Assembly: GCA_964016885.1 (NCBI GenBank)
Contig: OZ024751.1
Location: forward strand, 36,828,001-36,892,000
DNA from: Eledone cirrhosa
Taxonomy: Eukaryota
Length of the DNA: 64,000 bases
Direction: 5' to 3'
This document shows, in pieces, positions 2,821-44,786 of this stretch. Position 1 is the first letter of the stretch, and each line of letters begins with the position of its first letter. A model generated the notes under the pieces. The model had not been told where the DNA came from and made no database searches. It saw nothing but the letters and a program-made list of their open reading frames with translations. A program made the position numbers and the translations under genes.

Positions 2821-3067
2821 GGGGGGAGGGGCATTATATTTACTTATGGAAAAGCGGAAATGAAAGAATATTCTTTTAAATAACATCGCAACGAAATGTG
2901 GGGTGGGGGTCATGATAAGATTATAGTGATTGAAAATAAAGTCACACTTTAGCCATGGGAAAAAAGGGGCTAAAAAGGAATTAACATATTTCCAAAGTTT
3001 TTTAATATATATATATATTTATTTATATATATATATGTAAGTAATATATATATATAGAGAGTAAGTA

Positions 3068-3177
3068 ATAGGAAAATGTTTAACCCCGACGGCAGAACTT
3101 CGACGGCTATTTCTGGACTCCAGAAATAGTCGTCGAAACGGCTTGAGCTCTGCCGTCGGGGTTAAACATTTTCCTAT
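3068..3177. mobile_element. Fold-back element, family C (no tail)
   Basis: Imperfect palindrome ATAGGAAAATGTTTAACCCCGACGGC...GCCGTCGGGGTTAAACATTTTCCTAT, homologous to 9406-9533. Confidence 0.8.
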
Positions 3178-3540: not shown

Positions 3541-3583
<43 letters not shown>

Positions 3584-3704
3584 GGAGGTGAGTTTTATTG
3601 TAGCACAATAAAGCAATGCAAATATCGGATAAGTAGCACTCAACAGTTTATAGGACTGAAGTATACATAATATAAAATCAAAAGATGGTTAAAAGAGTTC
3701 CATA

Positions 3705-3772
3705 TATTTTATTATGCGCATTTCAAAAACAAATATCATCATGGGATGATATTTGCGTTCTCATCAGATAAA
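3705..3772 (-). ncRNA. Mirror-image hammerhead ribozyme (family A, minus strand)
   Basis: The reverse complement of the left arm gives UUUAU-CUGAUGAG...UGAAAUGCGCAUA^AUAAA with an intact core. Confidence 0.8.
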
Positions 3773-3838
3773 TCAACATATGTTGATTTAACACTTCAGT
3801 GCTCGCAAGTGTTTTTTAAGCTTCATATCATGTCTCCC

Positions 3839-3909
3839 TATTTTATCTGATGAGAACGCAAATATCATCCCGTGATGATATTTGTTTTTGAAATGCGCAT
3901 AATAAAATA
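3839..3909 (+). ncRNA. Minimal type I hammerhead ribozyme (family A)
   Basis: UAUUUUAU-CUGAUGA (3847-3853)-long stem II-GAAA (3890-3893)-U GCGC A-UA^AUAAAAUA; 8-bp stem I, palindromic stem III loop, AUA cleavage after 3901. Confidence 0.88.
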
Positions 3910-4032
3910 CATGGTACTCTTTTAACCATCTTTTGATTTTATATTATTTATATATATATATTTCTCCCACACTTTCCCCTTATTTTTTCCTGTTCCTTCC
4001 TCTTACCACTCTTTACTTTCTATTTACAAATT

Positions 4033-4070
4033 ATCTTCTGACGAAGGTCTAGGGTCCGAAACGTTAAGAT
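4033..4070 (+). ncRNA. Ultra-minimal hammerhead motif (family F, Penelope pLTR type)
   Basis: AUCUU-CUGACGA-AGG UCUAGGGU CC-GAAACGUU^AAGAU; stem I AUCUU/AAGAU; loopless palindromic AACGUU stem III (dimer type); the element starts after (TA)n at about 3961. Confidence 0.7.
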
Positions 4071-4218
4071 TCTCTTCCAGAGGAAAAAAAAAAAGCAGCC
4101 AACGCCCGCATTATGTTCTCATATGACCCCACTTAATGTTGAAATGAAAGTAAATAAATAGAACCAAACCAAACCAGCCAATACCCACCACCAAATCACA
4201 AATACTTAGTTGCACATT

Positions 4219-26372: not shown

Positions 26373-26922
26373 TAAAATAAAGTTAAATAAAAGTCAAATG
26401 ATTAAAATTTAGCTTCGTTTATTACTGCTATATATATTTCAGTGACAGCCATCTTTGGCTGTGACCTCTTCAGGCAGTTTGAATTAGTATGGTATAGACA
26501 AGTACATATGTTGTTTAGGTGTATGATATTGTCAATACTCTGATATGCCCAGTTCCTTGGTGGGTTGTTAATTCACTGAGGAACTGGAGTCATATCTGAG
26601 TCATATATGACTCCAGTTCCCCAGTGAATTAACAACCCACCAAGGAACTGGGCATATCAGAGTATTGACAATATCATACACCTAAACAACATATGTACTT
26701 GTCTATACCATACTAATTCAAACTGCCTGAAGAGGTCACAGCCAAAGATGGCTGTCACTGAAATATATATAGCAGTAATAAACGAAGCTAAATTTTAATC
26801 ATTTGACTTTTATTTAACTTTATTTTACACTACTCCGGAGTAACCAAACCAACCTGCGCACTTCGTCGAGTGCTCCAGCCTGCATACTGAGGTGTTGGTA
26901 TACAACCAACATAAACTAAAAA

Positions 26923-31002: not shown

Positions 31003-31166
31003 TATCTATAAGGATCCTAATAGCAGACATAAGCATGTGGCTCTCCTATCTCGCATATAATCAGGAACTTTATAGCAAAGCATCACTCCACTCTAATGAG
31101 GCTTCACCTGAATGGAAACAACTAATATTATCCCAGAATCCTCATCTTTACTCGAATACTGGAACA

Positions 31167-32957
31167 CACTGTCTCTTGTGATAAACCTTCCTCCACTGTC
31201 TCTTGTGATAAACCTTCCCCCACTGTCTCTTGAGATAAACCTTCCCCCACTGTCTTTTGCGATAAACCTTCCCCCACTGTCTCTTGAGATAAACCTTTTC
31301 CCCCACTGTCTTTTGAGATAAACCTTCCCCCACTGTCCCTTGCGATAAACCTTCCCCCACTGTCTCTTGAGATAAACCTTTTCCCCCACTGTCTTTTGAG
31401 ATAAACCTCCCCCACTGTCCCTTGCGATAAACCTTCCCCCACTGTCTCTTGTGATAAACCTTCCTCCTACTGTCTCTTGCGATAAACCTTCCCCCACTGT
31501 CTCTTGCGATAAACCTTCCCCCACTGTCTCTTGAGATAAACCTTTTCCCCCACTGTCTTTTGAGATAAACCTCCCCCACTGTCCCTTGCGATAAACCTTC
31601 CCCCACTGTCTCTTGTGATAAACCTTCCCCCATTGTCTCTTGTGATAAACCTTCCCCCACTGTCTCTTGAGATAAGCCTTCCCCCACTGTCCCTTGTGAT
31701 AAACCTTCCCCGACTGTCTCTTGTGATAAACCTTCCCCCACTGTCTCTTGTGATAAACCTTCCCCCCCTGTCTCTTGAGATAAACCTTCCCCCACTGTCT
31801 CTTGCGATAAACCTTCCCCCACTGTCTCTTGCGATAAACCTTCCCCCACTGTCTCTTGAGATAAACCTTTTCCCCCACTGTCTTTTGAGATAAACCTCCC
31901 CCACTGTCCCTTGCGATAAACCTTCCCCCACTGTCTCTTGTGATAAACCTTCCCCCATTGTCTCTTGTGATAAACCTTCCCCCACTGTCTCTTGAGATAA
32001 GCCTTCCCCCACTGTCCCTTGTGATAAACCTTCCCCGACTGTCTCTTGTGATAAACCTTCCCCCACTGTCTCTTGAGATAAACCTTCCCCCACTGTCTCT
32101 TGTGATAAACCTTCCCCCACTGTCTTTTGCGATAAACCTTCCCCCACTGTCTCTTGTGATAAACCTTCCCCCCACTGTCTCTTGTGATAAACCTTCCCCC
32201 ACTGTCTCTTGAGATAAACCTTCCCCCACTGTCTCTTGCGATAAACCTTCCCCCACTGTCTCTTGCGATAAACCTTCCCCCACTGTCTCTTGAGATAAAC
32301 CTTTTCCCCCACTGTCTTTTGAGATAAACCTCCCCCACTGTCCCTTGCGATAAACCTTCCCCCACTGTCTCTTGTGATAAACCTTCCCCCATTGTCTCTT
32401 CTGATAAACCTTCCCCCACTGTCTCTTGAGATAAGCCTTCCACCACTGTCCCTTGTGATAAACCTTCCCCGACTGTCTCTTGTGATAAACCTTCCCCCAC
32501 TGTCTCTTGTGATAAACCTTCCCCCACTGTCTCTTGTGATAAACCTTCCCCCACTGTCTCTTGCGATAAACCTTCCCCCACTGTCTCTTGTGATAAACCT
32601 TCCCCGACTGTCTCTTGTGATAAACCTTCCCCCACTGTCTCTTGAGATAAACCTTCCCCCACTGTCTCTTGTGATAAACCTTCCCCCACTGTCTCTTGCG
32701 ACAAACCTTCCCCCACTGTCTCTTGTGATAAACCTTCCCCCACTGTCTCTTGTGATAAACCTTCCTCCACTGTCTCTTGTGATAAACCTTCCCCCACTGT
32801 CTCTTGAGATAAACCTCCCCCACTGTCTCTTGCGATAAACCTTCCCCCACTGTCTTTTGAGATAAACCTTCCCCACTGTCTCTTGCGATAAACCTTCCCC
32901 CACTGTCTTTTGAGATAAACCTTCCCCCACTGTCTTTTGAGATAAACCTTCCCCCAC
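31167..32957. repeat. 27-bp minisatellite, about 66 copies, with higher-order variant blocks
   Basis: Unit CACTGTCTCTTGHGATAAACCTTCCCC. Confidence 0.98.
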
Positions 32958-33209
32958 ACATTTTGTTTTTCCTGTAGATGACCGTTGCTTAGCATTTCTT
33001 GCAACACTATCAACGGATTAGTTATTGTTGTTTTTGCTGTTATATTGTTGTTGTTGTTACTGCTGTTGAATGTTGTTGTTCATGATGTTGTTGCGAGTCA
33101 TTTAAACGTGAGGTTTTGCTCCGCAATCACGTGATTTCTTCGTGGTTATATCTTTCTTCAATTGTCATTTCCTCTGTTTATCTTTATCCAGTGTTTTACT
33201 GTTTTCGAA

Positions 33210-34804: not shown

Positions 34805-35191
34805 ACGTGTGTTGAAACCGATATTGTTATACTTTGGGAGGGTCATGTTTCCAATAAGAAACACGCACCAGTTGCTTTGACTTCAATTTATTATAATAAA
34901 TTTATAAATTTAGGAATTTATAAATTTCCGGTTGGTTGGATGGTTCCACAACCAGATGGTTGTTTATATATTGTTAAAGTTCTTTCGTCACACATTCTGT
35001 GACCTCTTCAGTGACTGGGGTTCTTTTCTTTGTTTTTTGTGCCTCTCCTTTGTTCTGTCCTACGCCATCTTGTTTTCAACCAACCAACCGGAAATTTATA
35101 AATTCCTAAATTTATAAATTTATTATAATAAATTGAAGTGAAAGCACTGGTGCGTGTGTTTCTTATTGGCAACATGACCCTCCCAAATTAT

Positions 35192-41715: not shown

Positions 41716-42131
41716 GTAGGAGGTGAGTTTTATTGTAGTATAATAAAGCAATGCAGATATCGGATAAGAAGCACTCTACAATTTGTAGGACTGGAGTAAA
41801 CATAATATATAAGATCAAAAGATGGTTAAATGAGTTCCATGTATTTTATTATGCGCATTTCAAAAACAAATATCATCATGCAATAACATTTGTGTTTTCA
41901 TCAGATAAAATAGGACATGATATGAAGGTTAAAACACACTTGTGGATAGTGCAGTTTTAAATCAACATATGATATGTTGATTTAAAACTGCACTATCCAC
42001 AAGTGTTTTTTAACCTTCATATCATGTCCTCCTATTTTATCTGATGAAAACACAAATGTTATTGCATGATGATATTTGTTTTTGAAATGCGCATAATAAA
42101 ATACATGGAACTCATTTAACCATCTTTTGAT

Positions 42132-42135
<4 letters not shown>
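41716..42135. mobile_element. Fold-back hammerhead element, family A, copy 3 (both cores intact)
   Basis: Plus-strand CTGATGA at 42041-42047, GAAA at 42084-42087, AUA^ at 42095; a mirror copy is on the minus strand at about 41842-41912. Confidence 0.92.
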
Positions 42136-42201
<66 letters not shown>

Positions 42202-44548: not shown

Positions 44549-44639
<91 letters not shown>

Positions 44640-44667
44640 GTATGTATATATATATATATTTATATAC

Positions 44668-44732
<65 letters not shown>

Positions 44733-44786
44733 TATGTATGTGCGTGTGTTTTTATTGTTTGTGCGCGTGTGTATTTAACTATCAAC

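Follow-up and report, generated by a model that had tools for sequence, protein, structure and literature searches.

A head-to-head pair of 5′-truncated pLTRs with Hydra-clade Penelope-like motifs and a hammerhead on each strand in Eledone cirrhosa

Organization of the locus

The window, i.e., the whole stretch of 64,000 nucleotides analyzed here, is microsatellite-rich animal DNA and contains three copies of a palindromic repeat with hammerhead motifs, hereafter family A. Copy 1, a stretch of ~370 letters, belongs to a known type of jumping gene with a hammerhead ribozyme motif in its ends, of which thousands of shortened copies exist. The following features were annotated:

3541..3580, no strand assigned: left (TA)n target microsatellite, read from the sequence; TA-rich repeats also lie to the left of the best 30 relatives
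3581-3950, both strands: copy 1
3581..3663, minus strand: tail of ~83-86 nt, present in one arm only, with the long 3′ end at 3581
3594..3612, minus strand: predicted 8-bp hairpin right before the long 3′ end (prediction only)
3664..3772, minus strand: tailed arm, a 5′-truncated pseudo-LTR (pLTR) with its ribozyme sense on this strand
3705..3772, minus strand: type I hammerhead with a 5-bp stem I, predicted cut between 3713 and 3712
3770..3789, no strand assigned: junction, a 20-bp palindrome centred on CATATG; ~50 nt beside it are missing in the tailed arm
3778..3828, plus strand: fixed 5′ break point at 3778 (putative RNA 5′ end) and predicted leader stem-loop, AUAUG pairing with CAUAU
3778..3950, plus strand: tail-less arm, a pLTR bounded by the fixed 5′ point and the short 3′ end, with TA repeats after it
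3839..3909, plus strand: type I hammerhead, predicted cut after 3901
17389..17805, no strand assigned: copy 2, of a different subfamily, with a mutated plus-strand core
41716..42140, no strand assigned: copy 3, a near-perfect palindrome with both hammerheads complete and an extra G at the centre

The plus-strand motif of copy 1 consists of an 8-bp stem I (3839-3846 with 3902-3909), CUGAUGA at 3847, a stem II of 16 positions (15 pairs and one C·U mismatch), GAAA, and a minimal helix III with A-U and U-A pairs around a palindromic GCGC loop, just as the preliminary description had given them. The family A motif possesses the conserved core and the three helices of a type I hammerhead. The predicted cuts fall after 3901 in copy 1 and after 42095 in copy 3, at the positions named earlier. 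The minus-strand motif of copy 1 retains an intact core, stem II and helix III, while its stem I has just 5 bp because the tailed arm lacks ~50 nt upstream. In copy 2, the plus-strand core is broken (CUGAUUA) and the minus-strand helix III loop altered. The earlier statement that the hammerhead is complete on both strands is consequently true only in part, copy 3 alone being complete on both. The hairpin at 3594..3612 is predicted to have 8 bp in eight of the nine subfamily majorities described below and 6 bp in the ninth.

An Rfam search with positions 3590-4120 returned no hammerhead match at E ≤ 10, and a scan of the whole window yielded, among the 150 of 300 matches listed, only microsatellite look-alikes below gathering scores. 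In the 3.0-Gb assembly, the hammerhead pattern had 18,010 exact matches versus 0 for the reversed control, which shows that the motif is not there by chance. When the matches were put in positional order, a minus-strand motif followed by a plus-strand motif was common, the two lying 0.15 to 7 kb apart. The genome contains many near-identical copies of the palindrome (~425 bp), 867 exact 22-bp centres on CATATG, 1,809 matches to one source-type context and 775 to the oldest subfamily. Contigs of three sequencing runs (one sample, kind unrecorded) likewise present the locus as a high-copy repeat.

Several further repeats were observed in the window. A small fold-back in TA repeats (3063-3176) resembles a shortened hammerhead, having GAAAC and a stem II of ~16 bp but no CUGAnGA; a similar sequence flanks another family A locus (L008). 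A single compact type I hammerhead-like motif with a palindromic helix III (CUGACGA ... GAAACGUU) at 4033-4070 is probably another PLE end. A CUGAAGA ... GAAA motif with a short stem II lies on the minus strand at 34960-35020. Two tandem arrays, one of 45-bp units (~99% identical) and one of 27-bp units, occupy approximately 20383-22500 and 31156-33000, and microsatellite perfect hairpins at 16294-16409, 17018-17125 and 44563-44743 are microRNA-like in Rfam, below the gathering thresholds.

Identity of the element

Twenty longer loci with family A motifs were fetched and inspected for ORFs and repeats. Since ORFs of 738-821 aa (~810 aa) adjoin or sit between copies of the same repeat in four of them (L091, L094, L095 and L096), the repeat is the pLTR of an autonomous element of ~3.7 kb. 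The repeats are direct in L094 and L096 and both direct and inverted in L095. In full-length copies, the counterpart of the tail (3581..3663) continues into the 5′ UTR and the ORF. Between the arms of copy 1 and the pLTRs of six long loci, some of which bear an ORF, identity is 85-95%. No ORF pieces were found in the 64-kb window itself.

All four ORFs contain RT motifs, DKT, CxCx5C, YRDD and a GIY-YIG-like motif, and three of them the terminal CxxC and CxH, the fourth frame stopping early. The CX2-5CxxC linker is found in none, and CxCx5C stands in its place. The N-terminal RWK position reads RWI or RWT in all four (RWK/R in 21 of 37 homologues). DKT/S is present in 35 of the 37 homologues and DKG in none. 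One homologue has a precomputed PF00078 match, and the sole named protein relative comes from Argonauta hians (37% identity). Pfam gave no RT or GIY-YIG match for the ORF and nothing significant for the 6 of 37 homologues checked, and a PDB sequence search with the ORF gave no match. Given the silence of these databases, the assignment of the domains rests on motifs and homologues, and membership in the clade on motifs.

Judged by these motifs, the element has the single ORF with an RT plus a GIY-YIG at the C terminus between pLTRs that characterizes EN+ Penelope-like elements, as well as their inverted 5′-truncated copy with a one-sided tail (45 of 49 pairs combine a long and a short end). 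Among the features of the Hydra clade, DKT, the CxCx5C linker, CxxC/CxH, a hammerhead in the pLTR and (TA)n targets are present. On sequence grounds, copy 1 is two head-to-head, 5′-truncated pLTRs of a Penelope-like element with Hydra-clade motifs. Readings of the repeat as a Naiad element, as a MITE or as a palindrome replicated whole were rejected on the C-terminal endonuclease and the variable junctions.

It should be added that the ORFs at L091:1629-4091 and L096:1771-4194 have an asparagine-rich stretch between the RT and the endonuclease. The ORF is ~100 aa longer than most homologues, and the stretch is reminiscent of the N-rich inserts described in PMC3846280. Other retroelements (PLE-like ORFs, a LINE-like RT) are nested in or lie beside family A copies in L097, L108, L369, L376 and L107.

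Conservation of the ribozyme fold

A total of 374 arms were collected from the fetched loci and typed by stem II into nine subfamilies, 60 arms staying untyped (indels or ambiguity). Because the search patterns used to select arms favour intact cores, a comparison of decay rates inside and outside the ribozyme was dropped as evidence. Among the nine subfamily majorities, 1 of 35 sites varies in the core and stems I and III, and this change results in a G·U pair, against 51 of 188 sites (27%) in the pLTR outside the ribozyme (Fisher p = 0.0008). For stem II, the figure is 16 of 36 sites. In an alignment of 11 representatives, 97.1% of the cells pair, compared with at most 62% in slid controls. 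Eight pairs vary there on one side and two, both in stem II, on both sides; the two two-sided changes were equalled in 23 of 500 shuffles, and both hinge on one subfamily, the oldest. The first pair of stem II is G-C, G·U or A-U depending on the subfamily. One subfamily breaks a distal stem II pair, and one of the 11 representatives has private changes in stem I.

All five differences in stem II between copy 1 and copies 2 and 3 preserve pairing, which the preliminary description had said of most of them. Across the subfamilies, the 3′ strand varies too. The significance of the five G-U changes depends on the model: counting nothing but transitions on the A/C-rich 5′ strand gives p = 0.26, admitting one third transversions gives 0.04, and allowing a transition on either strand gives 0.02. 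Thus, the earlier proposal of selection on RNA structure in the source elements agrees with the conserved core, whereas stem II contributes only two two-sided changes and weak G-U evidence. Taking the sequence comparisons together, selection on the fold in the source elements appears moderately supported; covariation alone does not show it.

It is unlikely that the hammerhead is a dead relic and that its pair-keeping changes reflect a mutational bias, either transitions or A-to-I editing fixed by retrotransposition. Such a relic would be consistent with the five pair-keeping transitions on the 5′ strand at p = 0.26, with two-sided covariation that shuffles reach, with the few arms that end at the ribozyme cut site, and with arm-finding patterns that favour intact cores. 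However, the near-invariance of the core, stem I and helix III over nine subfamilies with much more variable flanks argues against it, as do the frequent transversions outside the ribozyme (19 of 40 two-state sites) and the first stem II pair, which has changed among G-C, G·U and A-U.

Insertion footprint and proposed mechanism

Arms were numbered from the C of CATATG (position 1), which places the cut after position 125. Their 3′ ends lie at about 166-178 (short) or at 259 (long). Among 49 position-ordered head-to-head pairs, 45 combined a long with a short end, two were long with long and two short with short. A second set of 90 loci was anchored on one long-end variant, and 89 of them were scored; a partner adjoined the tailed arm in 42 cases, and 40 of these partners ended at the short site. 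This set is biased to short tailed arms, as 25 tailed arms extend beyond -200 and their partners are mostly out of range. Of the 41 pairs that were typed, 39 had both arms in one subfamily, where 7.3 would be expected. By hand count, the tail-less arm extends further upstream than the tailed one in about 25 of the 42 pairs, and the arms do not overlap in 10 of the 42, six of these ten starting at the break point. In inserts of several kb, either arm may be the longer one. Junctions, that of copy 1 included, carry small fold-back remnants. Rare variants common to both arms numbered 26, all in short palindromes and none in longer inserts.

According to the pattern matches, the 5′ ends of 38% of the arms fall on a single base, which lies 124 nt upstream of the cut site, often with an extra G; genome-wide, the source C at position 1 is absent in 4,746 matches and present in 7,673. 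In the scored set, 20 of the 42 partners and 14 of the 89 tailed arms start at -2 to 5, while 2 of the 42 and 3 of the 89 end at 120-130, the cut-site region, so that no hot spot at the ribozyme cut site was seen among these 89 tailed arms and 42 partners. Because arms break at the fixed 5′ point and rarely at 120-130, most templates had not been cut by the ribozyme. The sequence makes it likely that the break point marks where the element RNA starts, and the site resembles an initiator.

The extra base was scored in 90 fetched arms taken from the first 100 matches without the C: 39 arms had a G, 36 a T and 15 an A. In 56 arms it was not explained by the partner arm, by a classification that is imperfect, and 24 of these bases were G (p = 3e-8 if 13% G is expected, as among other inserted bases, and p = 0.09 if one third is). 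The base of the predicted leader stem reads AUAUG/CAUAU and then C. The extra G would come from a copied cap or, equally, from fold-back of the cDNA onto this stem.

A size-selected search gave 241 small palindromes, and a handful of the first 50, examined by eye, were joined at the cut site. They are not evidence of cleavage, because the selected sizes are centred on that site and there is microhomology. A few tiny palindromes, such as that at G000:C1:55115734-55115800 (L236), have both arms starting at the predicted cut site; these are not significant in number and are possibly a rare trace of cleaved templates.

A second palindromic hammerhead family, with a CUGAAGA core and a palindromic AT-rich helix III, lies at 26373-26827 of the window and has 1,447 matches in the genome. 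Its break point (TTC/ATATG), the base of its leader stem and its long and short 3′ ends are the same as in family A, and 16 of 26 arms break within 12 nt. A related Hydra-type endonuclease fragment was found nearby in four of eight loci checked. The extra base is G in 2 of the 26 arms, and both are explained by the partner arm, which makes this family uninformative on a cap-derived G.

Together, the long and short pairs and the fixed break point suggest, at the level of sequence, that two cDNAs were synthesized on a sense RNA that had not been cut and whose 5′ end was fixed and perhaps capped. Based on these results, we propose with good confidence that copy 1 is a head-to-head pair of 5′-truncated pLTRs, left in (TA)n by an abundant Penelope-like element with Hydra motifs when both cut strands primed on uncut RNA. 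The endonuclease would cut (TA)n on both strands. One strand would then prime at the long site and the other at the short site, ~85 nt upstream. Both cDNAs would run toward the RNA 5′ end, often as far as the fixed start, which lies 124 nt upstream of the ribozyme cut, and microhomology of a few bases would then serve to join them. In the source elements, the hammerhead would be kept by selection; in stubs like copy 1, it would be a passenger. This proposal agrees with the shared design of the second family in the window. It also agrees with what PMC11167929 describes (two internal RT start sites, cutting and extension of both strands, uncut RNA as the main substrate) and with the inverted copy, one-sided tail and (TA)n targets given in PMC8557442. 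On the other side, the tail exceeds the usual 30-40 bp, the RWK position deviates, arms of the same subfamily can stem from the timing of activity or from gene conversion, and part of the asymmetry between arms may have arisen by later deletion, a case that fold-back synthesis could explain too.

More tentatively, and as a possibility that we rate somewhat below even, an enzyme dimer would prime both strands at two fixed sites on the uncut RNA, and the cDNAs would reach a capped start at the conserved AUAUG/CAUAU leader, which two Hydra-type families in the window have in common, and the enzyme would copy the cap as the extra G. If true, head-to-head inversions would be better explained by twin priming than by antisense self-priming, and the ribozyme would be held inactive during insertion.

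A single cDNA, or an antisense template as in the account of PMC3846280, might instead fold back at CATATG and copy itself, the unequal arms being due to later deletion. This route is suggested by the 867 exact CATATG-centred palindromes, by the fold-back remnants at junctions, by the 26 variants shared between arms of short palindromes and lacking in longer inserts, and by the leader stem, which can template an extra G. Later deletion stays a rival, since copy 1 itself resembles a palindrome that lost ~50 bp. Nevertheless, we find self-priming improbable. The tail-less arm often reaches further upstream, even if the sample favours short tailed arms, and in 10 of the 42 pairs the arms do not overlap, which argues for two cDNAs rather than one folded back; the several-kb inserts in which either arm is longer point the same way, and self-priming alone does not account for one long and one short end.

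Folding of the read-through RNA

The read-through RNA of copy 1 is predicted to form a duplex of ~110 bp (-178 and -177 kcal/mol, z -23), which agrees with the 100-160 bp of dsRNA expected in the preliminary description. In the plus-strand read-through RNA, the predicted probability of stems I and II is 0.000, and forcing stem I would cost 78 kcal/mol. In a single arm, stem II is predicted to form (0.985) and stem I to form weakly (0.086). Helix III does not fold in the predicted monomer, and two copies pair at -12.5 kcal/mol; according to these models, the working form of the hammerhead is probably a dimer held together by the palindromic helix III. The further claim that transcription in either direction would give a ribozyme-containing RNA is not supported as a function by the modelled folds, in which both motifs are buried in the duplex. 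Since both motifs zip up in this way, the two-strand layout does not appear to be a bidirectional ribozyme design. It is likely a by-product of insertion that follows the known inverted-pLTR pattern of Penelope-like elements.

That the palindrome is itself the functional unit, whether as a ribozyme/dsRNA element working in both directions or as a non-autonomous, retrozyme-like element that is copied in one piece, is very improbable: copies 1 and 3 have two intact cores each, near-identical copies of ~425 bp are many and the long read-through hairpin could feed small-RNA pathways, but junctions vary from copy to copy, rare variants lie mostly on one arm only (217 versus 26 on both), the ribozyme is not predicted to fold in the read-through RNA, the aligned loci showed no tandem arrays of monomers, and the sequence is the pLTR of an ORF-bearing element.

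Comparison with known systems

Hammerheads in the pLTRs of Penelope-like elements, opposite-strand pairs included, have been in print since 2014, and the ribozyme finding is ordinary. The Hydra clade was described by Craig et al. 2021 (PMC8557442) and includes Penelope-13_HM and Hydra-1_Obim; according to its supplement, Penelope-13_HM has an inverted 5′-truncated copy with the same hammerhead on both strands, and an octopus Hydra family has a different hammerhead. Family A shares with this clade, as characterized there, the C-terminal GIY-YIG, DKT, CxCx5C, terminal CxxC/CxH, pLTR hammerhead and (TA)n targets. It differs in RWI/RWT instead of RWK and in a unit of ~3.7 kb, the clade's being generally <3 kb. 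Compared with the Hydra motifs listed, stem II has 15 pairs rather than about 3-7, and helix III consists of A-U and U-A around GCGC and does not start with AC. The hammerhead given for Hydra-1_Obim differs in sequence from that of family A.

Paired minimal hammerheads on opposite strands, 100-700 bp apart, are reported in PMC4209133. As in the examples given there, the family A motif has a CUGAnGA/GAAA core and a short palindromic helix III implying dimer cleavage, and its predicted fold fits the dimer-dependent, low-activity motifs of that report; in contrast to them, its stems I (8 bp) and II are longer. The usually conserved G10.1-C11.1 pair is G·U or A-U in the abundant family A subfamilies and G-C only in the older one. 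The fold also fits the protein-assisted hammerhead described in PMC11167929. In this in vitro study of PAc/Poseidon (Frangieh et al. 2024, PMC11167929), there are, as in the reading of family A given above, two internal RT start sites that define the tail, AT-rich targets and uncut RNA as the main template. However, PAc/Poseidon belongs to another clade. The family A tail is ~85 nt long and lies upstream of the ORF, and one long and one short end contrast with the start site of PAc/Poseidon, for which the results presented give no strand difference.

Animal non-LTR retrozymes, as outlined in bioRxiv 10.64898/2026.07.22.740005 and PMC7229834, are similar in their type I hammerhead, PLE relationship and non-coding copies. 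They are direct tandem arrays of hammerhead monomers, whereas the family A stub consists of inverted pLTR ends of an ORF-bearing element; such tandem arrays were not found among the loci aligned here, the arms being inverted and the direct repeats being pLTRs that flank the ORF.

A literature search covering mostly freely accessible main texts found no published report of a cap-like G, a fixed 5′ point or strict long and short pairing in PLE insertions. The value of family A lies in its insertion footprint. The origin of head-to-head inversions in Penelope-like elements and the role of their hammerheads are stated as open in PMC3846280 and PMC8557442. Both questions are directly testable in family A, since it offers thousands of young copies, ORFs that are open without repair, 3′ ends at two fixed positions and a single fixed 5′ point.
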